This document shows positions 794 to 58,872 of a stretch of DNA of 63,157 nucleotides, piece by piece. The stretch lies in IMG/VR virus record IMGVR_UViG_3300033272_000024, positions 1-63,157 of that record; one strand, written 5' to 3'. Position 1 is the stretch's first letter. Each line of letters opens with the position of its first letter. The notes beneath the pieces were generated by a model. It worked only from the letters and a program-made list of their open reading frames with translations, searched no databases and was not told the origin of the DNA. The position numbers and the translations under genes are program-made. Origin of the DNA: a virus. Lineage: Duplodnaviria; Caudoviricetes.

Positions 794-796
794 GTT

Positions 797-2777: not shown

Positions 2778-5700
2778 ATGGCCGATAGATACTGGCGCGG
2801 TGGTGGGGGTACATGGAATACAACTACCACAGCAAACTGGTCTGCAACATCTGGCGGTGCAGGCGGGGCGTCTGCTCCTACGTCTGCGGATAATGCAATC
2901 TTTGATGCAAACTCAGGATTGACTGCTTCGAGCGCTGTCACCATCACTGGTGGCGTATGTGCCGACCTTACATACATGCCGACAGCGACGGTGGGGCAGC
3001 GCACATTCAACATTGTAGATTCGCTAACGATTTCAGGGGTACTATCCACATCTGGTACAGCGGGCAATAATAGATTACGGATTCGATCTAATACACTTGG
3101 TATTGCAACTAATATGGTTGTGGCTACGCTCGGGTCAATCAGCGATGTTGACTTCATTGATGTGTATGTCACAGGAACGGCAGCACCGTTAACCGGAACT
3201 CGACTTGGTAATATCGCCAACGGTAGGGGTGTAACTTTCTCCACCCCAAAGACCGTTTACTGGAATCTTGCGGGCACGCAAGTCTGGGCTGCAAATGGAT
3301 GGGCGGCTACGTCTGGCGGAACTCCCAGTACAGACTATTTTCCGCTAGTACAAGATACCGCAGTCTTTGATAACGCTGGTGCAGTCACCTCAATTTCGAT
3401 GGTTAATAGCTCGTTTTCGTACTACGGCACGGTTGATATGTCGGCCCGTACAACAGCGATGACTATTATTACAGGAACAAATAATCAGATATTTGGAAAT
3501 TGGACAAATGGGTCTGGAACAGCGTTTAGTGGTACTACCGTAATTCTATTTCTAAGTCGAACTACGCAAACAATTACAAGCGCCGGTAAAACATGGTTTG
3601 CCCCAATTACGGTAAATACGTATGGTGGAACCGTACAGCTTGTTGATTCGCTTAATATTGGCGCAAATGCTTTAACAGTTACCAGCGGTACTTTCTCAAC
3701 GGCAAATCAGGCGCTTACAGCGGGCAGTATTGTCTCTAATACGGCAGGGCCACGGTCAATTAGTCTTGGAGCAAGCAATGTAACACTATCTAGCACTACA
3801 GCGGCATTCTTGTTTACCGTTGGTGATGGCCTTACTTTTGATGCGGGGACATCGTCAGTTAATTTGCCAGCGGGAACCAGCGCGTTTCCCGGCGCTAACT
3901 TTACGTACTACGATGTAACTGTCGGTGGCAGCACAGCCACAATCGCAGTATCAGGCATAAACACTTTTAACAATCTAAGTATCTCGGGGTTACGTGCTGT
4001 TATCTTCTCAGCTAATCAAACTATTAACAATAATCTGACGTGGACGGGAACAACGGTAGCAACGAGCCGTTCAAATTTTCAATCAAATGTCGTTGGTACG
4101 CCAATCACACTAACAATTAACAACCCCCCCTCACTCGTAGATATCGACTTTCAAGATATTACGGTTATCGGGACTGCCGCTCCTATTTCCGGTACTCGTT
4201 TTGGTGATGTAGGAGGTAACTCTGGGATTACATTCACATCAAAAACGGTTTACTGGAATCTTGCGGGCACGCAAGTCTGGGCTGCAAACGGTTGGGCAGC
4301 TACGTCTGGAGGAACACCCGCAGTAGCCAATTTTCCACTTCCGCAGGACACTGCGGTATTCAACAATGCCGGAAGTGTTACAGGAACAATCACTATAAAC
4401 GGGGCATATAAACTGCCTTCTGTGGATATGTCAACCCGCACAACTGCGATGACGTTAGGGACAAGTACAAATCAACCCAGCGTGTATGGCGATTGGACGA
4501 ACGGATCAGGTACAACACTAACTGGGGTTGGTGTTTTAACCTTTGTTAAGCGAAGCGGAGCAACAATCACATCGGCCAGTAAAACCTTTACTCAAGGCAT
4601 TGTTTTTAGTTCTCCGGGGGGTTCAAGCACTATTGCGGATGCGCTAATAACCTCTGCATCAGCAGGCGTCTCGATACTATCCGGAACGTTTAGTTCGGGA
4701 ACATACAACGTAACTACTCCAGCGGTCATTAGTACAGGAACGCTTACTAGGCGTCTAAATATGGGGTCTGGGTTGTGGACGCTCAGTTCAGCAGGGAATA
4801 TTTGGACTGTTACTTCCACGGGGTTAACTTTAGATCAAGGCACAGCAAACATACTAAGTAATACCACATCGACATTAGCTAAAACATTTGCAGGGGGTGG
4901 GTTTTCGTACAACACGCTGACCATTGGTGGGACGGGCGTATCCACACTAACCTTTACCGGGGCAAACAGCTTTACTGAATTAGCCAGTACCAAAACAGTT
5001 GCTCATACGGTTGCCCTTTCCGCTACTTTTGCACAAACTTTTGGTGCATGGACAATTACAGGAACCGCTGGTAATTTGGTTACTGTTAGTGGAGCAAGTT
5101 CCCATATTATTGCAGGCGCTCGTGTATCAGGTGTTGACTATCTCACGATGGGGACAACCAGTTTTTCACTAACTTCTCCGGGCGAGTTTTACAGAGGTGC
5201 AAACTCCACAGGTACTGGCGCAGGAATTAATACGGGGACTGCCCCAACACCTGTTACGCGCTATTGGGTAGGGGGTACTGGCATATGGAGCGCGACAAAT
5301 ACAGTTAATTGGTCTGATGCCTCTGGCGGTATCGGCGGTTTTTCTGTTCCCACCTCTGCGGACACGGTAATTTTTGATTCCTTGTCAAACGCTACAGCCT
5401 ATACGGTCACTTGCACAGCCACTCAACTTCGGTGCGCTTCCCTAACTATGGGTGCCCCACTCACGGGAAACATTACTTGGGCTGGCACAGCACCTTTATC
5501 CGTGCATGGAAACTTCTCCCTAACAGGCGGAACAAATATTACTCGCACGTATACAGGCGCTATAACGTTTTCAGGGTCAACTACGGGCAATACGATCAAT
5601 GCGAATGGAATTGTTTTTGGCGCGAATGTTACTGTAGATGGTGTTGGTTGTGGTTGGACAATGACCTCCGCTTTGGAAGTTGGTAGTTCCTCCATTCTTT

Positions 5701-42270: not shown

Positions 42271-42459
42271 ATGAGTGTGTGGCGAGGGACAAGCATCAAC
42301 AAAAGTGAGGCGAACGCGTTTAACTGGCGGGGTAACAGTGAAATCATGAAAGACCCCAGCATGAAGCGCATAGAAGTAGCAAATCAATTAAAAAAGAAGA
42401 GCCTAGAGCCGCGCTACTCGGGTCTGGTTCTGGCAAAGCAAGGAAAATTCAGTGTCTAA
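42271..42459 (+). CDS. Hypothetical protein
   Basis: AAGGAG RBS. Confidence 0.6.
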   Translation: MSVWRGTSINKSEANAFNWRGNSEIMKDPSMKRIEVANQLKKKSLEPRYSGLVLAKQGKFSV

Positions 42460-43243
42460 AATTCTCAACATCGACAACATTCGCATAGATGCGGGAACAC
42501 AATCCCGCGAAAAAATTGATGAAGACGTAGTGAGAGACTATGCAGAGTGCATGGCTGACGGTGTGGGTTTCCCACCTGTTGATGTAATGTTTGACGGCGT
42601 AGAGTACTACTTGACGGATGGCTTTCACCGTTACCACGCCCACCGTAAGAACGGAAAAGTCAGCATTGAAGCTGAAGTGACAAACGGTACGCTGCGTGAT
42701 GCAAAGCTGGCGTCTTATGCTGCTAATGGCAGGCACGGCTTGCGTCCATCAAACGCTGACAAACGCAAAGCAGTAATGTCAATGCTGGATGACATGGAAT
42801 ACAGCGGCTGGTCTAACGTAGAGATTGCAGTGCATTGTGCGGTTTCACGGGTGTACGTAGCAAACCTACGCAAAGAACTTGAAACACCAAAAGAAAAGAC
42901 AAGCGCCAAAGCCAAGGTAGGCGACAAGCCGCTGAAGGATGAAGTTAGCACCACTGACTTGCCTCCAGAAACACTACCAGACAACCGTGCAGAAGAAGCC
43001 ATGCAGATGCTGGCAGCGGACAACGAAACATTGACGCAGCGGCTTGCAGTGGCGGCTATGGATGCAACAGAAGAAGAAAAAGCATTGGCGACCATGCTGA
43101 TTGCTGACTACGTTGAGCAGATCCGCATCTTGAACATTGAGCTAGTGTCTGTAAAGCTGAGCCGGGATCGGTTCCAAGCTGAAAACTCTGAGCTTAAGAA
43201 GCAGGTCAAGAGCCTAGAGCACGTTATCAAAAAGAACTCGTAA
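42452..43243 (+). CDS. ParB/Srx N-terminal domain protein with HTH and coiled coil
   Basis: FPPVDV...YYLTDGFHRYHA; N..HGL...D; WSNVEIAVHCAVSRVYVANLR. Confidence 0.82.
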   Translation: MSKILNIDNIRIDAGTQSREKIDEDVVRDYAECMADGVGFPPVDVMFDGVEYYLTDGFHRYHAHRKNGKVSIEAEVTNGTLRDAKLASYAANGRHGLRPSNADKRKAVMSMLDDMEYSGWSNVEIAVHCAVSRVYVANLRKELETPKEKTSAKAKVGDKPLKDEVSTTDLPPETLPDNRAEEAMQMLAADNETLTQRLAVAAMDATEEEKALATMLIADYVEQIRILNIELVSVKLSRDRFQAENSELKKQVKSLEHVIKKNS

Positions 43244-43288
43244 ACATTTGCCCAAGTTGCCGGGCAGGTATGGCAACGGAAAGAAACA

Positions 43289-44755
43289 ATGGCTTTAAAT
43301 TTAAGAGCGTATCAAACGCTGGCGTTAAACGGTTTGCGTGCAGGCTTTGCAGCGGGGAAGCGGTCACAGATTTTGTACCTACCTACGGGTGGTGGCAAAA
43401 CTGAGGTTGCTATCGCCCTGCTGGAAGCCACAAAGACCAAGGGAAACAAAGCGGCAATGGTTCTGGATAGGATCATTCTCTGCGACCAGACAAGCCTACG
43501 ATTAACAAAGTACGGAATTGACCACGGCGTACTTCAGTCCGGGCATTGGCGGTATAGACCCTATGAAGCAATACAGGTATGCAGCGCACAGACTATAGAG
43601 AAACGCGGATCGTTTCCCGGCCTGACCATTTTGATAATTGATGAGTGTCATTCGACGCGCAAACAAACAATTGACTTTATCAAAGCCAATCCAGACATCA
43701 AGGTAGTTGGACTAAGTGCTACACCTTTTACCAAGGGGCTAGGAAACGTTTACGAGAACGTGGTGAGTACGATAACCACGGCTGAGCTTGTAAAAGCCAA
43801 GGTACTTTCTCCACTGAAAGTGTTTATTGCCAAAGAGATAGACATGGAAGGCGCTAAGAAAGTGGCGGGTGAGTGGAGCCAAGGCGAGGCCACCAAGCGC
43901 GGAATGCAGATCACAGGCGACATCGTTACCGAATGGATTAAAAAGACCCATGAGATTTATGGCAAGCCACGTAAGACGATTGTGTTTTGTTCTGGCGTCG
44001 AGCATGGCGCTGACCTATCTAAACAGTTTGCAGCACAGGGCTACAACTTCATCAGCATCAGCTACAAAGATGAAGATCAGTTTAAAAAGGATGTGATTGA
44101 AGACTTCAACAAGCCAGATACAGAAATACACGGGCTGATTGCCACTGATATTTTGACCAAGGGCTTTGACGTTCCCGACGTAATGATTGGCGTGAGTGCT
44201 AGGCCATTCAGCAAATCGTTGTCATCGCACATTCAGCAAATGGGTAGGGTCATGCGCGGTCTTGAGGGGAAAGATTTTGCCGTTTGGCTGGATCATTCGG
44301 GTAACTACCTGCGCTTCCAAGAAGACTGGGATCAGATTTACTCGGAAGGCGTGCAGACCCTAGACGACGGGAAAGAAAAAGCCAAGAAGGAAAAGACAGA
44401 AGGGGAAAAGGAAGCGGCCAAGTGTCCTAAATGTGGGGCTATGTGGCCCTCTCAGTCTGATACTTGCTTGCACTGTGGGCATACCCGTCAAAGAAAGAAC
44501 AAGGTAGACAGCGTACCCGGTGAAATGGAGGAGCTAACCGGGAGCAAAAGTCGGGAAGAAAAGCAAGAGTGGTGGAGTATGTGCCAATACAAAATCAACT
44601 ATTCAGGATGGTCTAGCGGGAGAGCAGCACACACCTACAAAGACAAGTTTGGAGTCTGGCCCAAGGGTTTGGCTGACGTACCGAAAGCGCCAGACGTAGT
44701 TTTTGAGAAGGCAGTGAAGGCTGCGATTATTCGATACATAAAAGGCAAAAAATGA
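43289..44755 (+). CDS. SF2 DExH helicase with C-terminal zinc ribbon
   Basis: PTGGGKT, DECH, GLSATP, GFDVP, QQMGR.MR; CPKC...CLHCG. Confidence 0.93.
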   Translation: MALNLRAYQTLALNGLRAGFAAGKRSQILYLPTGGGKTEVAIALLEATKTKGNKAAMVLDRIILCDQTSLRLTKYGIDHGVLQSGHWRYRPYEAIQVCSAQTIEKRGSFPGLTILIIDECHSTRKQTIDFIKANPDIKVVGLSATPFTKGLGNVYENVVSTITTAELVKAKVLSPLKVFIAKEIDMEGAKKVAGEWSQGEATKRGMQITGDIVTEWIKKTHEIYGKPRKTIVFCSGVEHGADLSKQFAAQGYNFISISYKDEDQFKKDVIEDFNKPDTEIHGLIATDILTKGFDVPDVMIGVSARPFSKSLSSHIQQMGRVMRGLEGKDFAVWLDHSGNYLRFQEDWDQIYSEGVQTLDDGKEKAKKEKTEGEKEAAKCPKCGAMWPSQSDTCLHCGHTRQRKNKVDSVPGEMEELTGSKSREEKQEWWSMCQYKINYSGWSSGRAAHTYKDKFGVWPKGLADVPKAPDVVFEKAVKAAIIRYIKGKK

Positions 44756-44922
44756 TGACCAAAAAAGAGCTATTGCAAATGGATACCCTGCGTGCTCAGT
44801 TGGCAGCAGAGCAGCAGCGAAGCGAAAAAGCCATAACCGCCTACCGGGAAAACTTGTACGAACTGGTTGAGTGCAAGATAAAACTTGAGCGGATTCAGAA
44901 AGTTATAGAAGGGCAAGAGTAA
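44752..44922 (+). CDS. Small coiled-coil protein (56 aa; below cutoff)
   Basis: Read manually; overlaps the helicase stop and the primase start. Confidence 0.6.
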   Translation: MMTKKELLQMDTLRAQLAAEQQRSEKAITAYRENLYELVECKIKLERIQKVIEGQE

Positions 44923-45764
44923 TGGACTTGCTGACATTTTGCAGGTTGCATGGCATCCTGATAAACCACGTTCCTCCCCTTGGCGTATGGAAACGTTTCG
45001 CCACGGAAGACCACCCGCGAAGCACGAACGGCGCTGTGAAGTACATGGGTAACTTTGCCCACGTACAAAATCACGCTGTAATGCTGGAGCCGGTAACGTG
45101 GCAGGCAGATGACGACCAAAAGATTGCCCCGCAACTAATCGTCAGGCAAGCAAAAGAGCAGGACGATAGAACGGCCAAACTGCAAAAGGATGCTGCATCA
45201 AAGGCGGCATGGATAGTAAACCAATGCCAAATGGCGAAGCATGAGTATCTCCTTGCAAAAGGCTTTCCCGATGAGCAGGGTCTGGTGTGGCTAACCGACG
45301 ACAAAAAAATTCTAGTAATCCCCATGCGGATAGATAACCGACTGTTGGGGTGTCAGTTAATTGACACTGAGGGGGACAAGAAGTTTTTGTTTGGGCAGAA
45401 GACCTCGGGTGCGGCCATGACGTTTGACAACAAAGGGCTGCACATACTATGCGAGGGTTACGCTACTGGCTTGAGTGTGAAGGCTGCACTGAAAAACATG
45501 AAGCGGCGTTACACAATTCACGTTTGCTTTAGCGCTGGCAACATGGTGAAGGTGGCAAAAACTCTACAAGGGGGGTTTGTGGTTGCCGACCATGACAAGC
45601 CTAACCCGCAAAACGGGACTCGGGCTGGTCAGGTGGCTGTTGACAGTATCGGCTGGCCCTACTGGATGAGCGATACAGAAGGTGAAGACGCTAACGACAC
45701 GCACCAAAGGCTAGGGCTGTTTAAGTTTGCACAAAGCATGGTTCGCTCAATGCCGGTGGTCTAG
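44922..45764 (+). CDS. Toprim-domain primase (TraC-like)
   Basis: H.YL..KG, LVIPM, QLI...G.KKFL.G, LCEGYATGLS, ADHD, DAND. Confidence 0.88.
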   Translation: MDLLTFCRLHGILINHVPPLGVWKRFATEDHPRSTNGAVKYMGNFAHVQNHAVMLEPVTWQADDDQKIAPQLIVRQAKEQDDRTAKLQKDAASKAAWIVNQCQMAKHEYLLAKGFPDEQGLVWLTDDKKILVIPMRIDNRLLGCQLIDTEGDKKFLFGQKTSGAAMTFDNKGLHILCEGYATGLSVKAALKNMKRRYTIHVCFSAGNMVKVAKTLQGGFVVADHDKPNPQNGTRAGQVAVDSIGWPYWMSDTEGEDANDTHQRLGLFKFAQSMVRSMPVV

Positions 45765-45926
45765 TAGCCACTCGGCGGCAAGCTGGCAGGCAGCTATGAG
45801 AGTAGGGGTTTTCCCCTTCTCAAGCTGCTTAGCCAACTTCATGGCCGACATCATTTCGTTGTGTGTCTTAGCCTTGGCCCCTGCGACGTAAGCATGGGTC
45901 AGTGGATTGTCGTGTTCTGGGATCAT
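45747..45926 (-). CDS. Hypothetical early protein
   Basis: Likely start MIPEHD (ATGA overlap). Confidence 0.55.
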   Translation of the reverse strand: MIPEHDNPLTHAYVAGAKAKTHNEMMSAMKLAKQLEKGKTPTLIAACQLAAEWLLDHRH

Positions 45927-47373
45927 GATGGATAGCACTTGCAATAAAAGTTGTGGCCGAACTCGTCAACAAAGTATAAGTTTTCTGAGCCGGTGCTGGT
46001 CAGTGTAATAGCGCCAGTGCCCAGCCAAGCCTCCATCGTGGGCACTTCGATTTCTTTGCACTCTGGCAAAGGGGTCGTTTTAAATTTATAAGTAAGCATG
46101 GTTTTCTCCTTGTTTAAAAAAGTGCGTCCTGCTGCTGGGCACGCTGTTTAAGTTGGTAGGCTTTTATCTGTTCCGCCGTCCAAGGCACTGGCCCGGACAG
46201 CGGAGGAAAAGGCCAACTCATGTAAGCGGAATTTCTATCTGCTTGCTTAAGTCTCGCAGTAGTGGGGCTTGAATCCACTGCTCTCCAGATTGTGCAATCC
46301 AATACCGGCCATGATTGGTGATTGTCCAAACCTTGCCGCAGCCGTAGCCAACGTACTGGCCTTTTTTAAATGCGCTTTTTTCGATGTTAAGCATGGTTTT
46401 CTCCTTTAACTTGCGGTGTGGATAACTTCGCTGCCATCAGGACGAGCGGCCAGCATAACGGTAACGTCGTAGGACTTGCGTGCCTTGAAAGCCTTTGCAG
46501 CTATTTCCTGCGCGTCGAATGAACGCATTGCTTTAACTTCCATTTGCTTGCCGCGATAAAAAGCGATATAGGTAAACATTGTTCTCTCCTTCTTATTCAG
46601 TCCAACAAAAAATTGCCGGTACTTTGGTGTTGTTGAGTTTTAATTCGGCGGTGATGCGTTGATACTCGGCGCTTTCCTTTGGGGTAAATGCGTAGTAACC
46701 CGGCGTAGGTGTGGCGAGTGTTGATCCGTTCTTTTCGCGGGTGTGAACTACTACGCGGCCAGTAGATAAGGTGATATTGTTAAGCATGGTTTTCCCCTTG
46801 TTAAAGCAAAATGTTTTCTTCTTCTTCAAGCCTGATAAAAGGCCATCTGTCAAAGCCACTAATCGAATAGTAAAAGCCTAATTTGTCGGTCACTCGGATT
46901 TGCGTGTATCCGTCTTTGGCGGTTGTAACTTGGATGCAAAGCATGGTTTTCTCCTTGTCGGCACTGTTGCCGCCTAAACCCTTGGCGAAGGGCTTAGACT
47001 GGATCAGTACTCGTCGGCGTAGTCTTCCAAGCTGGTTATCAGTCCGTCAAAATCCTCAGTCGGGCCTAGTACATCAGCCATTGCAAAAACGGCGCTACGG
47101 TCGTATTCCTCGCAGAGTGATTCAAGATATTCGCGGCGGTTTACAAAGCCTTGTGAGGTGTAGGCGTTGGTGTTAAACATGGGTTTCTCCTTGGGTTTAA
47201 TAGGTCAGTCGGGCTTCTTCGCGGCCTTGCTCGATGAGATAACGGGCTTCGGCGCGTTCGTCAATCTGCTCTGACTCCAGCATCCTGCGGATGATGATCG
47301 CTTGCGCGGTGCTGGTGGCGGTTTTCTCGTAGTTGTAACCTGCGGTGATGTAGTCGGCGGCGGTGTAGTTCAT
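45923..47373 (-). other. Array of at least 8 tiny early genes (mostly under 60 aa), most with a strong RBS
   Basis: Read manually: starts at about 46099, 46221, 46394, 46579, 46787, 46944, 47180 and 47373; several share AGGAGAAAACC-ATG-CTT. Confidence 0.7.
46945..47001 (-). ncRNA. Repeated double-hairpin cis-RNA element, copy A
   Basis: GTCTAAGCCCTT-CGCC-AAGGGTTTAGGC, then GGCA-ACAG-TGCC, then RBS. Confidence 0.65.
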
Positions 47374-47546
47374 GATTGTTTTTCCAAAAGATAACGGGCT
47401 TCGGCTTCAAGTTCTTCGGCTGTTTGTTCATGCTGGCGCATACTCTGCGACGAATGATTTAAATAATCGTCGCTCTGCTTCCTGTGCCACATGGCGAGGT
47501 GTTGCAGGGTAACGGCTTGGGCGGTATTTGATAAGGGCGTCATGGT

Positions 47547-47825
47547 TTAGAAAAGTGGGTTTTGTTTGCTGGTGGTGCGGGGCTGGTTTAACGTGTGGGC
47601 CAGCGTGAAAGCTGCGGCTTCGGCGGCTTGCAGGGTGTCGGCTGGTTTCAGTGCCTTAAATTGTCCGGTGTCACCGTCCCAATAATCAAGGGCTGGCGTC
47701 AGTTTGTAAGCTGCTGCGCATCGCTGTGCCTCGTCTAGTGTTCCGTCTTTGCACGCTGGCATGGCTTGGTGGATTAAGCGCCACTGTCCGGCGCTGTTGC
47801 TGTAGTAGGTGGTCGGTTCGGTCAT
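47547..47825 (-). CDS. Hypothetical early protein
   Basis: ORF with upstream TGGAAACAATC-ATG. Confidence 0.65.
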   Translation of the reverse strand: MTEPTTYYSNSAGQWRLIHQAMPACKDGTLDEAQRCAAAYKLTPALDYWDGDTGQFKALKPADTLQAAEAAAFTLAHTLNQPRTTSKQNPLF

Positions 47826-47993
47826 GATTGTTTCCAGTGCTTACAGGCGCGGCTACTGGTGTAGTAGGCTGCGCTTGAATCGCTCAGCGCGTATTCCATC
47901 AGCATTGCGCGCGCCTCCTTGTAGGTCGTGAACTCGTCCACGGTTTCGACTTGTTTGCCGGTGCGGCGTTGAATGTAAATCATAGGGTTCCCC

Positions 47994-48176
47994 TTAGAGT
48001 GTGGCGCGGTCAGCTAGGTCGTGGCGAATGGTTCCGGCGCGTTCAAGGTGGTCGATATAGTCGCACCACGTTGCGCGGATTGTGGCGTTGTAATCGTTTT
48101 GCTTGGTTTGTCCTCGGCGCGTAAATTGTGGGTGTTGGCTCCAAAATTCGGCGCGAAGTTCTTTTTGTGTGGTCAT
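47994..48176 (-). CDS. Hypothetical early protein
   Basis: QKELRAEFW..HP...R..W.DYID.L...G.I...LA.R.TL. Confidence 0.7.
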   Translation of the reverse strand: MTTQKELRAEFWSQHPQFTRRGQTKQNDYNATIRATWCDYIDHLERAGTIRHDLADRATL

Positions 48177-48547
48177 GCTGTTTGCTCCTGAAATGTTTTG
48201 ATTTCGGCGGCTGCTGCGGTGTTGATCGCGGAAAAATCAACTCCTGCGGCTTTCCACAATTGGGTCAGTTTGCGGGCGTTGATAGCGTAAGTGTCTAGCA
48301 GTGTGATGAGAATCACAAGCTCACGCCCAGCAGCTAACGGCTTGCAGTTCTTAACGATCTGCTCTGCGTGAAACATCGGGCCAGCGCCATAAGTGCCATT
48401 AAGCAGCCAACTAATACGGGCAACGCTGGTTTGCGGGTCAATCCATCCGTCTGCGTCACTGCGCCATTCTTTGCCCAGCGTGCGGCGTGCGTCCATCGCT
48501 TTAAGGTGGTTGCTCAGTTCTTGGCTTCTGTATTCGTCATTGGTCAT
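48173..48547 (-). CDS. Hypothetical early protein
   Basis: AGGAGAAACCACA-ATG. Confidence 0.7.
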   Translation of the reverse strand: MTNDEYRSQELSNHLKAMDARRTLGKEWRSDADGWIDPQTSVARISWLLNGTYGAGPMFHAEQIVKNCKPLAAGRELVILITLLDTYAINARKLTQLWKAAGVDFSAINTAAAAEIKTFQEQTA

Positions 48548-48603
48548 TGTGGTTTCTCCTGCATGGCGTAATTGCCCGTTAACCCTCGGCGAAGGGCTAA
48601 CAG
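48548..48603 (-). ncRNA. Repeated double-hairpin cis-RNA element, copy B
   Basis: CTGTTAGCCCTT-CGCC-GAGGGTTAACGG, then GGC-AATTAC-GCC, then RBS. Confidence 0.65.
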
Positions 48604-48607
48604 TTAA

Positions 48608-49120
48608 TCACTCCGCTTGCATCATGTAGTTGGCGCTACTCCAGCATCGCACGCTGTCGGGGTCTTCGGTAATGGTCACGCTGTAGTCTTCGCAACCATC
48701 GGGTATATCTAGGCCGGATTCCGCTCCTTCCAATGTGATACCAAGCATTTCGGAAAACCTCGCGGCGAAGTGGTCGCAGTCCATCGGGTCGGAATCTTGC
48801 AAGACAATCCGCAACTCTTTTACCCCGTGGCGGTCTTTGAGAATTGCAAAGGTGGGAAACGTTTCCAACAACTCCTTTGCCTGCTCGGCAAGTTGTCCGG
48901 CATTGCTGGCGCGGCGTTGCAGTTCCTCGCGCTCTGAGGCTGCTGTATCGCAGAGGGCGACAATTGAATTGTTAAGAATTCGCGTGATGTGATAAATCGT
49001 TTCTTGAAGCTGAATGAGGTCGGTAGCCTTATAGGATTCCGTCTTGATAGATAGCAGGGCTTGATCTTTTTCGTGGTTGATCTGCATTTGTAGGTTCAGA
49101 AAAATTTGATCGTGGCTCAT
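48608..49120 (-). CDS. Hypothetical early protein (acidic C-terminus)
   Basis: ATGA overlap; AAGGAG RBS. Confidence 0.7.
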   Translation of the reverse strand: MSHDQIFLNLQMQINHEKDQALLSIKTESYKATDLIQLQETIYHITRILNNSIVALCDTAASEREELQRRASNAGQLAEQAKELLETFPTFAILKDRHGVKELRIVLQDSDPMDCDHFAARFSEMLGITLEGAESGLDIPDGCEDYSVTITEDPDSVRCWSSANYMMQAE

Positions 49121-49464
49121 GCTGTCTCCTTTGCGTAGCGGGTGAATAGGTCATTGAAGGCGGCGACAAGACGGGGGCGGTTCAGTCCATCGGCCACCAT
49201 GTAAGCATCGCCGATAGAACTTGCAAAGCTGCCACCAAATAAAATCATGTACTTTGCTGCCTGTAGGCATTGCTCGTGACTAAGCGGTTCCGGTGCTTGC
49301 TCTGCTGATAAGTTAATCATGGTGTTCAAAACCACGTGAACGGCTGTGGTCACTGCTGCGCTGTTGTCGCTGGCGCGTGCTATTTGGTAGGCGTAATTTA
49401 TAGCCTCGTCCATTGTCTTGCGCGTACCAAAAACGGGTTGGCGGTATTGTTGCGGGTCGATCAT
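49117..49464 (-). CDS. Hypothetical early protein
   Basis: Likely start MIDPQ; GGSFA..I..A...AD..N..RL..AF.DLF..Y. Confidence 0.7.
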   Translation of the reverse strand: MIDPQQYRQPVFGTRKTMDEAINYAYQIARASDNSAAVTTAVHVVLNTMINLSAEQAPEPLSHEQCLQAAKYMILFGGSFASSIGDAYMVADGLNRPRLVAAFNDLFTRYAKETA

Positions 49465-49522
49465 TGTGGTTTCTCCTTTGGTTGGCATAAGTGCCCGATA
49501 ACGCTCTGCGAAGCGTTACCAG
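49465..49522 (-). ncRNA. Repeated double-hairpin cis-RNA element, copy C
   Basis: CTGGTAACGCTT-CGCA-GAGCGTTATCGG, then GGCA-CTTA-TGCC, then RBS. Confidence 0.65.
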
Positions 49523-49526
49523 TCCA

Positions 49527-49811
49527 TTACGCTGTCAGTTGTTCGGCTTCAGCTACTGCCTGCGCGTCACTGCGTCCCATGCCTTGGGCAATAAGCGCAT
49601 CGGTAAGCTGTAACGTTTTCTGGTGTTCTATGTCCTGAATCACTTTGGCAAGAATTTTCTCCTTGCTGCCCTTGTAACCCTCGGCTTTCAAAATGGCGTA
49701 GCAGGAATGTCCGTGGCTCATCTTCATGCCTTTGATCTCAAGCTTTAAGCCGCTGCGAAGGGTGCAAAGGCGGTAGAGTGCAATCTGTTCAATTTTGGTC
49801 AATGCGGTCAT
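49527..49811 (-). CDS. Hypothetical early protein
   Basis: Likely start MTALTK; LRSGLKLEIKGMKMS.G.S.Y..LK. Confidence 0.7.
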   Translation of the reverse strand: MTALTKIEQIALYRLCTLRSGLKLEIKGMKMSHGHSCYAILKAEGYKGSKEKILAKVIQDIEHQKTLQLTDALIAQGMGRSDAQAVAEAEQLTA

Positions 49812-49824
49812 GGTCGTGGCTCCT

Positions 49825-49962
49825 TTATTCTGGCAATACGCCGTTAGGCAAGAATTGACGGCCTTGGAAAACCCAAGCGCCGCCGACATAATCGCGCCGT
49901 GTCCAGATACGTCCGTCGATGCCATTGACTGTGGCGTAAGTGAAAGTGAATTCTGCTTTCAT
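49825..49962 (-). CDS. First small early gene
   Basis: Likely start MKAEFT with a CAGGA RBS. Confidence 0.5.
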   Translation of the reverse strand: MKAEFTFTYATVNGIDGRIWTRRDYVGGAWVFQGRQFLPNGVLPE

Positions 49963-50166
49963 GCTGTCTGTTCCTGTAGGGGTTGAGTTAATTAACCGAC
50001 ACATATATTTTGTTCCCGTGGAAGCCTCGCTGGTTTGATTGTTTAAATCGAAAACCGGCGCACGATAGCGGTTCCCTATGGCATTCGCATAGGCTAAGCC
50101 TATAGAAAATAGAAGGTCGATAGCCGGGGGCTTGCAGTTCACTGGCTGTTCTCTCATAATCGCACC

Positions 50167-50814
50167 ATGAACGAATCACCCAAACCATTGAAGTTAACCC
50201 GTAAACAAATACAGGATGGACTCGATCAGATCCCCTTGGATCAACTGTTTCACAAGAACGTTTCCAAGCAACTAACAGCGAAACAAAAAGGCTTCGCTCT
50301 GGATATTGCCAAGGGTGCAACAGGATCGCAGGCTTACAGAAACAACTACAACACGCACACAACTAAGCAAAACCAGGGTAACCAAGCGTGCCGCCTAACT
50401 GCTGACGACAGGATAAAGGCTGAGATTGCTGCGTACGCGCTGGCTATTGAAGCCGAGAAACATCGCTCCCCTGCTGCTCTACGTGCTTTAGTCATTCAAT
50501 CCCTTGTGCAAGTGGTCATCGATCCTGACGCTAAACACGCGACGAAGGTCGCTGCTGCTAAGGTGCTGGGCACTGTGACCGAGGTCGCTGCCTTCACGGA
50601 ACGGAAAGAGGTTCGCACTATTACTAGTAGTGAAGACGCACGCGCTAAGGTTATGGGAGAGCTTCGCAGGCTGATGGGATCGACCGCTACTGATGTGACG
50701 ATCATCGATGAAGCCGCCGACTCGCTGCTTGCCGAGCTTGCCAACCCAGCGACCGACGACGAAAGCCAGCCCGACGAAGACCCACCCATCCCCCATGCCC
50801 CCGATATAAGTTAG
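50167..50814 (+). CDS. terS: Terminase small subunit
   Basis: LTAKQKGFA..IAKG.T..QAYR..Y...A.RL....RIKAEI; KVAAAKVLG; upstream of terL. Confidence 0.8.
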   Translation: MNESPKPLKLTRKQIQDGLDQIPLDQLFHKNVSKQLTAKQKGFALDIAKGATGSQAYRNNYNTHTTKQNQGNQACRLTADDRIKAEIAAYALAIEAEKHRSPAALRALVIQSLVQVVIDPDAKHATKVAAAKVLGTVTEVAAFTERKEVRTITSSEDARAKVMGELRRLMGSTATDVTIIDEAADSLLAELANPATDDESQPDEDPPIPHAPDIS

Positions 50815-50884
50815 GCGTACCCGACTCCTACTACATACTATTCCACCCAAACTGTCCAAAAAATTTCCCAAAAAAAATCACTCC

Positions 50885-50991
50885 AAACGAAACGTTTCGT
50901 TTTTTGCAAGTTTGGTTATATAGAACGACAAAGTACATGACTAAAAGCTATAACAGCGAAACGTTTCGCGGTCATAAAAAGGAAACGTTTC
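50885..50991. promoter_or_regulatory. Cluster of three GAAACGTTTC palindromes, including an 18-bp perfect palindrome at 50885-50902
   Basis: Copies at 50889, 50958 and 50982. Confidence 0.85.
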
Positions 50992-51010
50992 GTTTTTCGG
51001 AGATTTGGTT

Positions 51011-51289
51011 ATGTTAAGAAACGAAAAGATAAGGAAAAGTTATGAAGAATGTATGGAGAGCGGCATGAGTCCCGCGCAGAAGGAAGTGTTTTTGGTGATT
51101 GATGAGTGGTGGAAGAGGTATGGGTATTCGCCGTCGATCAGGGATATAGCGTATGTGAGGGGAAAGATGGGGTTGGCGAGTACGCATAAGATTGTGGAGC
51201 GGCTGGTGAAGTTGAAGGTGATAAAGAAGATGGATGGAGCGGGGAGGACGATCCGCCCGACTTACATTCAGTTTAGACACTTGGAGTAA
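51011..51289 (+). CDS. LexA-type winged-HTH DNA-binding domain protein (no peptidase domain)
   Basis: SPAQKEVF..I..W...GYSPSIRDIA...G..S..KIV..L.....I......RTI; alternative start at 51065. Confidence 0.82.
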   Translation: MLRNEKIRKSYEECMESGMSPAQKEVFLVIDEWWKRYGYSPSIRDIAYVRGKMGLASTHKIVERLVKLKVIKKMDGAGRTIRPTYIQFRHLE

Positions 51290-51292
51290 TCA

Positions 51293-52795
51293 ATGACGGA
51301 TTTTGCAAGTATTGAGAAGTTGATGGGTAGTCTGCCGATACAGGAGCAGGAGTTGTTGCTGGGGCAAATTGAGGAGTATCGAGCGGCGCTGGCTAGGGAG
51401 GAAGCTCAGAAGAGTTTCATGGCGTATGTGAAGATGATGTGGCCGGGGTTTGTTCATGGACGGCATCATGCGGTTATGGCAAAAAAATTCGAGGCTATCG
51501 CCAATGGCACTTTGAAGAGACTGATTATTAATATGCCGCCTCGGCATACGAAGAGTGAGTTTGCTTCGTATCTACTGCCTTCTTGGTTTTTGGGCAGGAA
51601 TCCGGGAAAGAAGATTATCCAGACATCTAATACGAGTGATCTGGCGGTTAACTTTGGCCGTAAGGTTCGGAACTTGGTGGACAGTGAGTTGTATGGGAAA
51701 GTGTTTCCCGGTGTGGCGTTGAGGCAGGACAGTAAGTCTGCGGGTCGTTGGGCTACTAATCACAATGGCGAGTATTTTGCTATTGGTGTTGGCGGGACTG
51801 TTACTGGTAAGGGTGCGGATTTGCTGATTATTGATGATCCTCATTCAGAGCAAGAGGCTGCTTTGGCGGCTGGTGATCCGTCTGTGTTTGATAAGACGTA
51901 TGAGTGGTACACCTCTGGGCCGCGTCAGCGACTGCAACCGGGCGGGGCCATTGTTGTAATTATGACGAGATGGGGCCAAAAAGATTTGGTTGGCCGAATT
52001 GTTAAAGATGCCGCCATGAGGGATAAATCGGATGAGTGGGAGATTATTGAGTTCCCTGCGATCATGCCTAGTGGGAATCCGCTATGGCCTGAGTTCTGGT
52101 CGTTTGAGGAACTGGAGGCGCTAAGGGAAGAGTTGCCTCCAGCTAAGTGGAATGCTCAGTACCAGCAAGCCCCCACGGGAGAAGAAGGTGCTTTGGTTAA
52201 GAGGGAGTGGTGGAAAAAATGGCCGGGAGAAGAGCCACCACGGTGCGAGTTTATTATCCAGTCATGGGACACGGCGTTTACTAAAAGCGAGAGGTCTGAC
52301 TATTCGGCGTGTACGACATGGGGAGTTTTCCACATGAACGAAGACCCGACTGATGTAAATATTATCTTGCTGGATGCGTTTAAGAAGAGGATGGAGTTTC
52401 CTGAGCTTAAGGACAAAGCGGTTCAAATGTATAAGGAGTGGGAGCCTGATGCCTGCGTAGTTGAGGCCAAGGCTTCTGGTGCGCCGTTGATATTCGAGCT
52501 TAGGGCTATGGGGATTTCGGTATCTGATTACACGCCTAGTCGGGGTAATGATAAGTTTGTGCGACTAAACTCCGTGACTGATTTGTTCCGTAGTGGTAAA
52601 GTGTGGGCACCTGACACTCGTTGGGCTAGTGAGGTTGTAGAAGAGATTGCCGCATTTCCAAATGGCGAGCACGATGACCTTGTAGACTCAAGCACGCAGG
52701 CACTAATTAGATTTAGGCAAGGTGGCTTTATTCGTCTTGAATCAGATGAACGTGACGAAGTAAGAAGCTTCCGCCGAAAAAACGCTTATTATTAG
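51293..52795 (+). CDS. terL: Terminase large subunit
   Basis: INMPPRHTKS Walker A, TGKGADLLIIDDP, QSWDTA, EAKASG, FPNGEHDDLVDS. Confidence 0.96.
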   Translation: MTDFASIEKLMGSLPIQEQELLLGQIEEYRAALAREEAQKSFMAYVKMMWPGFVHGRHHAVMAKKFEAIANGTLKRLIINMPPRHTKSEFASYLLPSWFLGRNPGKKIIQTSNTSDLAVNFGRKVRNLVDSELYGKVFPGVALRQDSKSAGRWATNHNGEYFAIGVGGTVTGKGADLLIIDDPHSEQEAALAAGDPSVFDKTYEWYTSGPRQRLQPGGAIVVIMTRWGQKDLVGRIVKDAAMRDKSDEWEIIEFPAIMPSGNPLWPEFWSFEELEALREELPPAKWNAQYQQAPTGEEGALVKREWWKKWPGEEPPRCEFIIQSWDTAFTKSERSDYSACTTWGVFHMNEDPTDVNIILLDAFKKRMEFPELKDKAVQMYKEWEPDACVVEAKASGAPLIFELRAMGISVSDYTPSRGNDKFVRLNSVTDLFRSGKVWAPDTRWASEVVEEIAAFPNGEHDDLVDSSTQALIRFRQGGFIRLESDERDEVRSFRRKNAYY

Positions 52796-52802: not shown

Positions 52803-55241
52803 ATGAGCATTGAACAATCCCTCAATCCAGCGCCCTTGGGCATTTCTAGTTTAGTTGCCGAAGAAGAGCCAACAATTGAAATTGAAATTGACGGCCTAGA
52901 TGGCGTTGATATGGAAGGCTTTGAAATTGAGTCGTTTGAAGACAGTGAATTTGGCGCTAACTTGGCCGAAGAAATGTCTAACAACGAACTGCAAAGCGTT
53001 GCCAATGAGATTGTTGAATTGGTTGATGCCGACATCAACAGTCGAAAAGACTGGGTAGATATGTATGTCAAGGGCTTAGAAGTCCTTGGTATGAAGTATG
53101 AAGAGCGTACTGAGCCGTGGTCAGGTGCTTGTGGCGTGTTTTCTACTGTGCTTACTGAAGCTGCCGTTCGATTCCAAAGTGAAACTATTTTGGAAACGTT
53201 TCCCGCGCAAGGCCCGGTCAAGACGGAAATCATCGGCGCTATTGATAAGCTGAAAGAAGAAGCTGCTGAGCGAGTTCGTGAAGACATGAACTACCAGTTG
53301 ACTGAGAAAATGCCTGAATACCGGCCAGAGCATGAAAAGATGCTCTATTCGCTGGGTCTGGCTGGCTCTGCTTTCAAGAAGGTTTACTACGACTCTTCAA
53401 TCCGCCGTCAGGTGTCCATGTTTATCCCAGCGGAAGACATGATTATTCCTTACGGTTCTTCTAGTTTGATTAGCTCAGAGCGCGTGACGCACATCATGCG
53501 TAAAACGCCTAATGAAGTACGTAAGCTTCAAGTGTCTGGCTTCTACCGTGATGTTGACTTGGGTGAACCAGTAGCAATTCACACAGACATTGAGAAAAAG
53601 AAGGCTGAAGATCAAGGTTTTAGCGTTACAGACGATAACCGCTACCAGCTTCTTGAGGTTCACATTGACTACGACTTGCCGGGGTATGAAGATGAGGATG
53701 GCGTTGCCCTTCCCTACGTCATTACCATCGACCGAAACACAAATGAAGTGCTTTCGATCCGCCGTAACTACGAAGAAGATGACGAAAACCGTGAAAAGCG
53801 GCAACATTTCGCTCAATACACGTACATTCCCGGCTTTGGCGCTTATGGCATTGGCTTAATCTCCCTGATTGGCGGGTATGCCCGTGCAGGAACGTCGCTA
53901 ATCCGTCAATTGATTGACGCTGGTACGCTTTCTAACCTGCCGGGTGGCCTGAAATCCCGTGGTTTGCGTATTAAAGGCGACGATACTCCCATTGCACCGG
54001 GTGAGTTCCGTGATGTTGACGTTCCATCTGGAACTGTGCGCGATAATATTATGGCTTTGCCGTATAAAGAGCCAAGTCAAGTATTGGCCTCTTTGCTGCA
54101 AACTATTACCGACGAAGGCCGTCGTCTGGGTTCTATTGCTGACATGAATATCAGCGATATGAGCGCGAACTCTCCAGTTGGTACTACGTTAGCTATCCTT
54201 GAGCGCCAACTTAAGAATATGTCGGCAGTGCAGGCGAGAATTCATTACTCGATGAAGCAAGAGTTTAGGATGCTGAAAAGCATTATTAGAGACTACACGC
54301 CTACAGAGTATTCGTACAACCCAATTGGTAATAACCGCAAAGCCAAGCAAAGCGATTACGATTTAGTTGAAGTTATTCCGGTCAGCGACCCTAATAGCTC
54401 GACAATGGCGCAGCGGATCATGCAGTATCAGGCCGTGATTCAGTTGGCCCAAGGCGCTCCGCAGATTTATGATTTGCCACAGCTTCATCGCCAAATGATT
54501 GAAGTGCTTGGAGTTAAAAACGCTGAGAAGTTAGTGCCGGTTGAAGACGACATGACGCCGCGTGACCCAGTTAGTGAGAATATGGCATTCCTCACTGGCA
54601 AGCCAACAAAAGCTTTTATCTATCAAGACCACGATGCACACATTGCAGTGCATACGGCCATGATGCAAGACCCAACATTGATGGCGCAAATCGGGCAAAA
54701 CCCGCAAGCCCAGAAAATGATGGCTGAGATTCAGGCGCACATTGCAGAGCACTTGTCTTTTGCTTATCGCAAGAAGGTTGAAGAGCAGTTGGGCGTGCCA
54801 ATGCCAGCGCCTAATGCTAAGTTGCCAGAAGAAGTTGAAGTTCAGCTTTCCCGCATGGTTGCACAAGCTGCACAGCAAGTTTTGGCTCAGAGCAAAGGTC
54901 AGGCGCAAGAGCAAGAAGCTCAAAAGCAATCACAAGACCCAATTGTGCAAATGCAGCAGGCCGAGTTGGAAATTAAGAAAACTGAAGCACAAGCCAAGAT
55001 TGCAAAAATCCAAGGCGACTTGGAAGTTAAGAAGCAAGAGTTGCAGTTGAAGATGCAAAAAGCTAATAGCCCACAAGCTAACGTAGCTCAGTCTACGGCG
55101 GAACGTCAGCAGCTTGAGTTGCAAATGATGGCTAAACGTCATCAACAAGAAATGCAACAAGAAGCCGAATCGCATGAACAGAAAATGGCAATCGAACGCC
55201 AAACTGCCATGCAACGAAATCAGATTAATAATAGGAGTTAA
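52803..55241 (+). CDS. Portal protein (P22-like, with Q-rich barrel)
   Basis: 812 aa directly after terL; GSAFKKVYYD; C-terminal coiled coil. Confidence 0.85.
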   Translation: MSIEQSLNPAPLGISSLVAEEEPTIEIEIDGLDGVDMEGFEIESFEDSEFGANLAEEMSNNELQSVANEIVELVDADINSRKDWVDMYVKGLEVLGMKYEERTEPWSGACGVFSTVLTEAAVRFQSETILETFPAQGPVKTEIIGAIDKLKEEAAERVREDMNYQLTEKMPEYRPEHEKMLYSLGLAGSAFKKVYYDSSIRRQVSMFIPAEDMIIPYGSSSLISSERVTHIMRKTPNEVRKLQVSGFYRDVDLGEPVAIHTDIEKKKAEDQGFSVTDDNRYQLLEVHIDYDLPGYEDEDGVALPYVITIDRNTNEVLSIRRNYEEDDENREKRQHFAQYTYIPGFGAYGIGLISLIGGYARAGTSLIRQLIDAGTLSNLPGGLKSRGLRIKGDDTPIAPGEFRDVDVPSGTVRDNIMALPYKEPSQVLASLLQTITDEGRRLGSIADMNISDMSANSPVGTTLAILERQLKNMSAVQARIHYSMKQEFRMLKSIIRDYTPTEYSYNPIGNNRKAKQSDYDLVEVIPVSDPNSSTMAQRIMQYQAVIQLAQGAPQIYDLPQLHRQMIEVLGVKNAEKLVPVEDDMTPRDPVSENMAFLTGKPTKAFIYQDHDAHIAVHTAMMQDPTLMAQIGQNPQAQKMMAEIQAHIAEHLSFAYRKKVEEQLGVPMPAPNAKLPEEVEVQLSRMVAQAAQQVLAQSKGQAQEQEAQKQSQDPIVQMQQAELEIKKTEAQAKIAKIQGDLEVKKQELQLKMQKANSPQANVAQSTAERQQLELQMMAKRHQQEMQQEAESHEQKMAIERQTAMQRNQINNRS

Positions 55242-57893: not shown

Positions 57894-58805
57894 ATGGCTA
57901 TTTCACGCGCACAACTACTTAAAGAACTGCTTCCGGGCCTGAACGCTTTGTTCGGCATGGAGTATGCAAAATACGGCGAAGAGCATAAAGAAATCTACGA
58001 AACCGAATCGTCGGAACGTAGTTTTGAAGAAGAAACCAAACTCTCTGGTTTCTCCGCTGCTCCAGTCAAGTCTGAGGGTGCTGCCATTGCTTATGACAAT
58101 GCACAAGAAGCTTGGACTGCACGTTACAACCACGAAACTATCGCGATGGGCTTTTCCATCACGGAAGAGGCTGTGGAAGATAACTTGTATGACTCGCTGT
58201 CCTCACGTTATACCAAGGCTCTGGCCCGTGGTATGGCTTACACCAAGCAAGTTAAAGCTGCTTCTATCCTGAATAACGCTTTCTCCGCAGGTTATACCTA
58301 CGGCGACGGTACTACTCTGTGTAGCACTCAGCATCCTTTGGTTGCCGGTGGCTACAACAGCAATCGTCCATCTACCGGCGCTGACTTGAATGAAACATCG
58401 TTGGAAAACGCTGTCATTCAGATCGCCGCTTGGACTGATGAGCGTGGCCTGTTGATCGCAGCTAAGCCTAAGAAGCTGGTTGTTCCTCCTTCGCTGATGT
58501 TCGTTGCTACCCGCTTGCTTGAAACGGAACTCCGTGTCGGCACTGCTGATAACGACATCAACGCATTGAAGAGCAATGGTTCGATTCCAGAAGGTTACTG
58601 CGTTAACCATTTCTTGACCGACACCAACGGCTGGTTCTTGCTGACTGACGTTCCAAATGGTCTGAAACATTTCGTGCGTACACCGTTGCAGAATTCGATG
58701 GATGGTGATTTCGACACGGGCAACGTTCGCTACAAAGCTCGTGAACGTTATTCGTTCGGCGTGTCTGATCCACTGGGCATCTTCGGTTCGCCGGGTTCGT
58801 CTTGA
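57894..58805 (+). CDS. Major capsid protein (Mu gpT-like, HK97 fold)
   Basis: MAISRAQLLKELLPGLNALFG...EG..I.YD...GDFDTGNVRYKARERYSFG.SD. Confidence 0.92.
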   Translation: MAISRAQLLKELLPGLNALFGMEYAKYGEEHKEIYETESSERSFEEETKLSGFSAAPVKSEGAAIAYDNAQEAWTARYNHETIAMGFSITEEAVEDNLYDSLSSRYTKALARGMAYTKQVKAASILNNAFSAGYTYGDGTTLCSTQHPLVAGGYNSNRPSTGADLNETSLENAVIQIAAWTDERGLLIAAKPKKLVVPPSLMFVATRLLETELRVGTADNDINALKSNGSIPEGYCVNHFLTDTNGWFLLTDVPNGLKHFVRTPLQNSMDGDFDTGNVRYKARERYSFGVSDPLGIFGSPGSS

Positions 58806-58846
58806 TAGTGAGGCTCTAGGCTTATAGCTTAGAGTGTCTATTTAAG

Positions 58847-58871
58847 AAAGGGGGCTTCGGTTCCCTTTTTT
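58847..58871 (+). terminator. Intrinsic terminator after the MCP gene
   Basis: AAAGGGGGC-TTCG-GTTCCCTTTTTT. Confidence 0.85.
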
Positions 58872-58872
58872 G

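Follow-up and report, generated by a model that had tools for sequence, protein, structure and literature searches.

Genomic context of the three elements

Three similar RNA structures lie between small genes of a single operon in an uncultured freshwater phage, and this raises the question of what role a repeated hairpin at gene junctions might play. The window, i.e. the whole stretch of 63,157 nt that was analysed, is the complete 63 kb genome of this phage. ORF lists, sequence and family matches placed all three elements in an operon on the minus strand (45747..49962), which comprises about 18 small ORFs whose function is unknown. It is flanked by a plus-strand replication module (ParB-like, helicase, primase) and a plus-strand packaging module (TerL, portal). 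Judged only from its gene content, the operon is probably transcribed early. In the relative L020 an ArdA gene is located directly upstream of an element, and the neighbouring genes are of the early or anti-defence type. A blastn comparison of the operon with 50,697 phage records gave a single irrelevant match of 129 nt, and for the gene that follows element B (124 aa) IMG/VR yielded no relatives.

The elements, designated A, B and C, occupy intergenic gaps of 59-62 nt and all lie on the minus strand. A preliminary description had located them between a stop codon and a ribosome binding site (RBS), and this arrangement was confirmed at each site: the upstream stop codon begins 7 nt before the stem, and the strong RBS motif AGGAGAAA(A)CC followed by ATG comes after the element. 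This motif occurs six times in total, always inside the operon, compared with an expectation of 0.26, and the RBS-ATG junction is repeated near the elements (4 copies, 0.19 expected). Downstream of element C the RBS AGGAGAAACC and ATG (49462..49477, minus strand) belong to the ORF 49464-49117; the corresponding minus-strand sites are 48545..48560 for the ORF 48547-48173 downstream of B and 46942..46955 for the ORF 46944-46801 downstream of A.

Structure and covariation of the upper stem

Sequence, minimum free energy (MFE) folds and our covariance model R2 supported element C (49485..49532, E = 4.5e-16), element B (48565..48614, E = 4e-19) and element A (46961..47010, E = 8.9e-14). The upper stem of C spans 49522-49495, where 49522-49511 pairs with 49506-49495 around the loop 49510-49507. 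In B it spans 48603-48576 (48603-48592 with 48587-48576, loop 48591-48588) and in A 46999-46972 (46999-46988 with 46983-46972, loop 46987-46984). If G-U pairs are allowed all three are perfect 12-bp helices closed by a 4-nt loop, CGCC or CGCA. As the preliminary description had maintained for the G-U pairs, the structures are specific to this strand: minus-strand folds gave z values of -3.6, -3.5 and -2.5, while those of the plus strand were near 0. R2 found exactly three copies in the 63-kb genome and revealed no further degenerate copies in the window, the next best match with filters off being the antisense strand of B (E = 0.05). The exact apex motif occurs three times in the window and is confined to the three elements, whereas with one mismatch it is not enriched (22 matches, 16.5 expected).

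The longest run of U within 16 nt of A, B or C is one or two residues and a terminator scan was silent at the elements, so that intrinsic termination is not supported, in agreement with the earlier view of these structures. Stimulation of stop-codon read-through was rejected. The next gene is in frame downstream of B alone (63 nt without a stop), but not downstream of C (65 nt) or A (62 nt).

The upper stem is strongly supported by covariation among 20 homologs, in an alignment that was fitted to the covariance model. Paired states accounted for 91.7% of cells and both sides had changed in 10 of the 12 pairs; none of 500 shuffles reached the observed values, and the covariation score of 0.487 compared with at most 0.06 when partners were slid. 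The compensatory changes, together with G-U pairs that function on one strand only, point to RNA structure, not identity of the DNA, as the target of selection. The loops of the homologs vary (CGCC, CGCA, CGCG, ATGC and also 5-nt loops), which argues against loop-specific recognition. On the other hand, the C-rich 5' arm and the G-rich 3' arm of the apex are never swapped among homologs. This hints at sequence-specific recognition, for which RNase III has no need, but since the apex was the basis of the pattern scan, its conservation is in part due to ascertainment.

One long irregular helix or two hairpins

According to the preliminary description, the upper stem was followed by a second conserved hairpin of the type GGC..GCC. 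Our analysis did not bear this out. The second hairpin has only 3-4 bp, its first G already belongs to the upper stem, and it is missing from the MFE folds of A, B and C alike. In B/C-type relatives three of its four pairs never vary, and in relatives L111, L120 and L085 it is unable to form. Instead, in single-sequence folds the segment in question pairs with the region of the upstream stop codon, giving an irregular helix with an internal loop. RNAalifold, run on MAFFT alignments for which no structure had been used in the fitting, returned for both subgroups an extended single interrupted helix from which the second hairpin was absent. A lower stem, to which the GGC..GCC segment contributes the 3' arm, is the better interpretation.

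In element C the 5' arm of this lower stem (49532-49527) contains the TAA stop of the upstream ORF (49529-49527) and the 3' arm lies at 49490-49485. In element B 48614-48606, containing the TGA stop 48610-48608, pairs with 48573-48565. The 5' arm in element A (47010-47005) overlaps the TGA stop 47006-47004 and the 3' arm lies at 46966-46961; here the 3' segment could alternatively form a 4-bp hairpin. The downstream RBS was sequestered in none of the single-sequence or constrained folds.

Pairing of the flanks was assessed with the upper stem constrained, since an unconstrained duplex test was underpowered (p 0.003-0.68). In all 27 elements available from the window and its relatives the 5' flank paired with the 3' flank, and the total helix amounted to 17-25 bp. 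Shuffle p values for individual elements ranged from 0.017 to 0.86 (median 0.12, mostly 0.02-0.3), and in L003 and L106a the pairing was no better than in shuffles. Combined by Fisher's method over 16 lineage representatives they gave p = 1.8e-4. In the lower stem of the A-type group 82% of cells were paired, compared with at most 48% after sliding of the partners; changes on both sides were seen in two pairs, and the covariation score was reached by none of 500 shuffles. The respective values for the B/C group were 75% and at most 46%, with only one pair changed on both sides and a score reached by 44 of 500 shuffles. In the ortholog of element C in L001 (7841-7777) a TAA-to-TGA change of the stop codon is matched by TTA-to-TCA in the 3' arm. 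Statistical support for the predicted lower stem can be called moderate. It should be added that the second hairpin is not without support in A-type copies, where shuffles gave p values of 0.003-0.04 (A, L001c, L093 and L094) and one pair had changed on both sides. Instead of one fixed RNase III helix, the fold may hence be a bistable one.

Distribution among related phages

As proposed in the preliminary description, a covariance model recovered homologs from IMG/VR. One to three copies were present in several uncultured relatives (TerL 67-92% identical), and over the clade the number of copies per genome varied from 0 to 3, at only some gene junctions. Every one of the 27 elements is preceded by an ORF ending immediately 5' of the stem and followed by another that starts immediately 3' of it. 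The clade carrying the elements is aquatic, with genomes of about 60 kb and a G+C content of 45-72%. An element was found at 5 of 80 TerL loci from IMG/VR. Metagenome loci of TerL relatives gave no model match (0 of 80), including one that was 84% identical and had 10 kb of upstream sequence. A pattern scan of IMG/VR returned about as many matches as the chance estimate derived from the information content of the pattern, and its matches were used only if confirmed by the model; in all five carrier contigs tested TerL was 70-77% identical to that of the window.

The nearest TerL proteins among named phages were about 57% identical and came from DSL-LC04 and the pelagiphages HTVC027P and HTVC023P; the whole records of DSL-LC04 and HTVC027P contained no model match. 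Rfam gave no relevant match for positions 44000-52000 of the window at E values up to 10, and nothing at gathering score for the whole window. Equivalent junctions in the loci of eight relatives did not match any ribozyme family, the only match being a Mu-gpT-DE RNA in L177. The sequence family is thus absent from Rfam.

Comparison with L001 revealed that conservation is concentrated on the elements. Element B is 88% identical over 51 nt to L001 7153-7203 although the genes on both sides are non-homologous, and C and A are also short islands of homology. The ortholog of element A (L001 5889-5823) stays beside a homolog of its upstream gene; one gene has moved relative to this element between the two genomes. 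The identity island of B between non-homologous genes suggests that the elements may also mark points of cassette exchange, and since they persist while their neighbours are replaced, they probably serve as homology patches for the exchange of early-gene cassettes as well.

Comparison with known intercistronic signals

The closest parallel is found in the early region of T7, with its RNase III sites R0.3, R0.5, R1, R1.1 and R1.3 (these names are absent from the T7 record used). Like the elements described here, the T7 sites occupy gaps of about 60-80 nt that separate early cistrons, are directly followed by an RBS, lack a U-tract and form a paralogous family sharing stem sequence. When the 0.4/0.5, 0.7/1 and 1.2/1.3 gaps of T7 (63-81 nt) were folded with the same tool, each gave a lower stem and an internal loop beneath an upper stem of 9-13 bp. 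In both systems the upstream stop codon falls within the lower stem or beside it; that of T7 gene 0.4 lies inside the 5' arm. The phage studied here is unrelated to T7, however, and part of its element family can form a small second hairpin. R2 with filters off did not match T7 400-8000 (best E = 0.57), so the likeness is one of analogy and not of homology. In the Bacillus phages SP82 and SPO1 early mRNAs carry Bs-RNase III sites, where the enzyme of the host cuts at conserved hairpins that recur between early genes. Our elements resemble these in being repeated, conserved and placed between probable early genes.

A different parallel is offered by the PeSL of T4-type phages, which combine a strong sigma-70-like promoter with a working terminator, as set out in PMC2839356. 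According to the same source they are short repeated regulatory elements between non-essential early genes that persist as neighbours swap and are likely points of recombination, much as appears to be the case here. In contrast to the PeSL, our elements have neither a promoter-like site nor a U-tract, and the genes are 59-62 nt apart. Positions 45000-51500 contained three promoter-like sites (5.0 expected), none of them at or next to an element. The identification of the elements as sigma-70 promoters or PeSL cassettes was therefore rejected.

Possible function of the elements

We consider the chances about even that the elements are sites at which a host enzyme of the RNase III type processes and stabilises the polycistronic, probably early, minus-strand mRNA. 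The proposal is by analogy with T7. Of the three functions suggested in the preliminary description it fits best, provided that one long irregular helix takes the place of two hairpins. This helix would comprise about two turns. The constant 12-bp upper stem, closed by a tetraloop, would be followed by a small region with bulges or an internal loop and then by 5-9 bp of lower stem; the 5' arm of the latter would contain the upstream stop codon and its 3' arm would end a few bases before the next RBS. A cut by host RNase III within the internal loop or close to it might leave the upstream message with a 12-bp hairpin cap shielding it from 3' exonucleases, and the downstream message would be freed with an accessible RBS. 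The 3' arm released in A-type copies could then form a small GC-rich hairpin at the 5' end. The ideal RNase III substrate has 22 bp and cellular substrates have about 20 bp or less, and loops or bulges limit cutting to one strand, leaving 3' hairpins that stabilise the RNA (review PMC3867540). Measured against the length of about 20-22 bp, interrupted by bulges or an internal loop, that was drawn from this review, all 27 elements have helices of 17-25 bp, and they sit between cistrons with the next RBS following. The phage genome itself gave no match to the RNase III family PF14622, which was detected in 8 of 14 control bacterial genomes.

Could the hairpins act without being cut? A 12-bp stem might passively block 3' exonucleases and so divide the operon into segments of different stability, with no specific endonuclease involved. 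Barriers to decay of this sort are known from the REP hairpins of malE-malF and from the puf operon, and a presumed likeness to these would fit such a role. The stable stem directly after the stop codon in all 27 elements, the missing U-tract and the presence of one to three copies at some junctions only are consistent with it. Yet a passive barrier needs no more than the upper stem. The complementarity of the lower stem, reaching into the end of the upstream coding sequence, would be left unexplained, and so would an upper stem that is always 12 bp long and the fixed spacing to the next RBS; we regard this possibility as unlikely. Very unlikely in our estimation is a cis-acting regulatory RNA to which a protein or RNA polymerase binds, be it a translational operator or an antitermination signal of the put/nut kind. 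The asymmetric apex (C-run 5', G-run 3'), the conserved G-U wobbles, the plausible second hairpin of A-type copies and the position of the first copy about 450 nt into the operon would suit this idea, and HK022 put is likewise a structured cis-acting RNA of an early operon; for the elements here two adjacent hairpins had initially been proposed. But put and nut sites number two per genome and lie next to promoters, and put consists of two substantial, adjacent and conserved stem-loops. Here 0-3 copies follow ORFs and not promoters, the consensus is a single helix, and the second hairpin is marginal or absent: in B/C-type copies it is an invariant 3 bp sharing a G with the upper stem, and it is impossible in the three relatives named above. 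Antitermination as originally suggested is accordingly not upheld, and the variable loops, the lack of an Rfam match and the unsequestered downstream RBS speak against regulatory RNAs of this kind.

The mosaic surroundings of the elements might mean that they are primarily homology patches at the DNA level, i.e. PeSL-like mobile cassettes for recombination of early genes, in which the RNA fold is secondary. The islands of identity described above, the gene shifted relative to A, the patchy distribution in the clade and the repeated RBS-ATG junction can all be cited in favour. Compensatory changes and G-U pairs functional on one strand cannot easily be reconciled with it, and nothing here corresponds to the promoter that defines PeSL in PMC2839356, or to a U-tract. 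As the primary role we hold this to be very improbable; in itself the idea is compatible with RNase III-type processing and not exclusive of it. Highly improbable, and hardly to be expected, are weak or factor-dependent terminators or attenuators that grade expression along the operon without a U-tract. A GC-rich hairpin directly after a cistron would be in keeping with them and the homolog in L003 has a run of four U shortly past the stem. However, a run of at least four U is lacking in 26 of the 27 elements, the terminator scan does not call them, and where this phage does terminate transcription canonically, at plus-strand 58843-58872, it uses a hairpin with a U-tract.

RNase III-type processing could also be coupled to translation. 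Because the stop codon lies in the lower stem, a terminating ribosome might melt it and allow the 3' arm to form the second hairpin, and only mRNA with an untranslated upstream cistron would then present the full helix to RNase III. In such a two-state switch the second hairpin would cap the 5' end of the cut downstream message, and the element would double as a homology patch for cassette exchange. Taken as a whole this seems quite unlikely to us.

Significance

Since signals of this kind are known, the finding is useful more than surprising. The covariance model is of use for annotating early operons and the limits of genes in phage genomes from metagenomes, and with the element a natural and compact "insulator" becomes available for polycistronic constructs. 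The family also provides a test case for the question whether such elements double as junctions for the exchange of gene cassettes. If processing by RNase III is indeed their function, a long early message would be cut in the manner of T7 into hairpin-capped pieces, by way of an independent sequence family, in an unrelated clade of uncultured aquatic phages.

Genome and operon setting

The 63,157-bp record, which has direct terminal repeats and is classed as complete, belongs to a tailed phage with TerL, portal, tail-fibre and virion proteins, and the DNA runs containing it carry the label freshwater metagenomes. Its closest named relatives by TerL (about 52-58% identity) are DSL-LC04 and the Pelagibacter phages HTVC027P/023P. 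Family matches place a replication module at 42452-45764 (ParB-like, helicase and primase genes), the large terminase at 51293-52795 and the portal at 52803-55241, all on the plus strand. A minus-strand operon (49962 to 45747), made up of about 18 small ORFs, separates the replication module from the packaging module. No informative family match was found for these ORFs, and the operon is presumed to be early, judging only by its gene content and position.

Two other features of the genome deserve mention. Nineteen copies of the 10-bp palindrome GAAACGTTTC are scattered through the 63-kb genome (0.08 expected; maximum of one in 100 shuffles), in coding as well as non-coding DNA. Three of them are at 50889-50991, in the gap between a weakly TerS-like ORF (50167-50814) and a small ORF (51005-51289) just before TerL. 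Its candidate roles are those of a parS-like site, a pac/TerS site or a regulator's binding site, and the phage has a ParB-like protein gene at 42452-43243. In the virion module the product of a 2205-aa ORF (24179-30796, plus strand) resembles large phage proteins without an assigned function (phrog_18222, E = 3e-167) and has a weak match to a DarB-like antirestriction family; it may be an ejected anti-defence protein.

Three intercistronic elements

The three minus-strand elements between genes of the operon, noticed in a preliminary description, are real. Each has an upper stem that is a perfect 12-bp helix with a 4-nt loop (C, 49522-49495; B, 48603-48576; A, 46999-46972; all minus strand), and the gene gaps holding C, B and A measure 62, 60 and 59 nt. 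As described, each follows a stop codon, which begins 7 nt 5' of the stem in all three, and precedes an RBS motif and ATG. Minus-strand folds of these regions beat shuffles (z = -3.6, -3.5 and -2.5) whereas plus-strand folds do not (z about 0), so the strand specificity ascribed to the G-U pairs holds. The exact apex motif is confined to A, B and C in the window, and a full-sensitivity model search of the genome returned three copies only, the runner-up being the antisense strand of B (E = 0.05). A search of Rfam, which had been proposed as a check, gave no match for the elements.

Among 27 elements of the family the anatomy is constant: in every one an upstream ORF stops shortly before the stem, and 21-34 nt after the stem a downstream ORF, equipped with an RBS, begins. 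The suggestion that they are not terminators for want of a U-tract agrees with 26 of the 27, which have no run of four U. A canonical intrinsic terminator is present in this phage (plus strand 58843-58872; 13-bp GC-rich stem, TTCG loop and T-run) after the ORF 57894-58805 in the structural module, showing that U-tract terminators of the usual kind are read by the host.

The stems had been said to differ in sequence while remaining paired, and a covariance model searched against IMG/VR indeed found homologs with a covarying upper stem in relatives. In an alignment that was fitted to the model, 91.7% of upper-stem cells are paired, both sides change in 10 of the 12 pairs, values reached by none of 500 shuffles, and sliding the partners lowers the covariation score from 0.487 to 0.06 or less. 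On these sequences we regard the covariation of the main stem as solid.

A probable single interrupted helix

Folding gave a shape other than the proposed double hairpin. The second GGC..GCC hairpin (hairpin 2), 3' of the upper stem, is missing from the minimum-free-energy folds of A, B and C alike, where its segment pairs instead with the region holding the upstream stop codon. The resulting lower stem has at least 6 bp, and bulges or a small internal loop part it from the upper stem. Folding under an upper-stem constraint paired the 5' and 3' flanks with each other in all 27 elements, for total helices of 17-25 bp. For single elements this pairing is modest against shuffles (p = 0.017 to 0.86, median 0.12); combined over 16 lineage representatives p is 1.8e-4, a value that is indicative only, the lineages being related. 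Lower-stem sequences differ from lineage to lineage, and between C and its ortholog in the closest relative, L001, the stop codon goes from TAA to TGA and its partner from TTA to TCA.

RNAalifold on plain MAFFT alignments drew an extended single helix in both subgroups of copies, A-type and B/C-type. The A-type lower stem is 82% paired (at most 48% when slid), with two pairs changed on both sides and a score reached by 0 of 500 shuffles; the B/C-type is 75% paired (at most 46%), with one such pair and a score reached by 44 of 500. Hairpin 2 is 93% paired in the A-type, with one pair changed on both sides (score reached by 61 of 500 shuffles), and 89% paired in the B/C-type, with three of four pairs invariant and covariation absent. 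It beats shuffles in A, in one L001 copy (L001c) and in the L093-type and L094 copies (p = 0.003-0.04), folds no better than shuffles in B and C or in relatives of these two, and is unable to form in L111, L120 and L085. We conclude from these models that the general fold is probably a single interrupted helix; in A-type copies a small second hairpin, mutually exclusive with it, is plausible as an alternative state. A T7-like two-turn helix, interrupted and with the upstream stop codon inside it, should replace the double-hairpin drawing.

Distribution and evolution

Eighty loci came from an IMG/VR search with TerL. Homologous elements turned up in five of them under R1, a model made from just the upper stem, and its successor R2: three copies in L001 and one each in L003, L006, L014 and L020, a count that gives no absence rate because many loci extend little upstream of TerL. 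Scanning IMG/VR with the apex pattern yielded 70 stretches, about the estimated chance number, so only those confirmed by the models were kept. The carrier contigs from the scan belong to the window's phage clade (TerL 70-77% identical to the window's in five of five tested), and the GC of their elements spans 45% to 72%. The window and G006, the record of L001, hold three copies, G005 and G008 two, and G001-G004 and G007 one; all of them are on the divergent strand, a few kb away from TerL. DSL-LC04 and HTVC027P gave no model match, and neither did 80 loci of TerL relatives taken from metagenomes. By these counts and absences the element is specific to this phage clade and patchy within it.

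Two more distant TerL relatives without the element, L051 (minus strand 6629-6604 and 6288-6263) and L068 (minus strand 7733-7710 and 7194-7165), carry 10-13-bp hairpins of unrelated sequence with an RBS and start codon directly after, which may be analogous intercistronic signals from other families. L177, a TerL relative from a metagenome, holds a Mu-gpT-DE RNA (RF03012) at 18648-18701 (plus strand; 61 bits, gathering score 49), for which the window gave no match.

In L001, whose TerL is 92% identical to that of the window, C and A keep homologs of their upstream genes; downstream genes diverge or differ, and the gene that follows A has its homolog at another place. Flanked by non-homologous genes on both sides, B is 88% conserved over 51 nt. 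The elements are therefore short conservation islands at cassette boundaries. In this they resemble the role described for the PeSLs of T4-type phages (PMC2839356), but PeSLs are defined by a promoter and a terminator, and the elements have neither. An identical 13-nt RBS-ATG-Leu junction precedes four consecutive small genes (minus strand 46094-46106, 46389-46401, 46782-46794 and 46939-46951; four copies in the window, 0.19 expected), and homology with L001 3' of element A stops just past it. This junction may act as a linker at which cassettes are exchanged.

Comparison with T7 and possible function

Three early intergenic gaps of T7 (0.4/0.5, 0.7/1 and 1.2/1.3; 63-81 nt), which we take to hold RNase III sites although the T7 record does not carry that annotation, were folded with the same tool. 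An upper stem of 9-13 bp sits on an internal loop and a lower stem, and the RBS of the next gene comes after them. The stop codon of gene 0.4 falls within the lower stem's 5' arm, as the upstream stop does in the fold modelled for the window elements. The elements show no homology to the T7 sites (best model E = 0.57). Directly upstream of the element in L020 is an ArdA antirestriction gene (2442-2957, minus strand; PF07275, E = 1e-18), echoing T7, in which the anti-restriction gene 0.3 belongs to the early operon holding the RNase III sites.

The review PMC3867540 gives 22 bp as the ideal RNase III substrate and about 20 bp or less for cellular substrates; there, loops and bulges let the enzyme cut one strand only, and the 3' hairpins that it leaves are stability determinants. 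As modelled, the elements have the structure that this review describes for RNase III substrates. A search of the phage genome found no RNase III gene, so a host enzyme would be needed.

Several other functions can be envisaged for such helices. They could be passive stabiliser hairpins, which we consider unlikely. A regulator bound by protein or polymerase is improbable, and a main role as recombination patches equally so. An attenuator acting without a U-tract is the most doubtful. The likeliest function of the elements, to which our analysis gives about an even chance, would be RNase III-type processing and stabilisation of the polycistronic, presumably early message.
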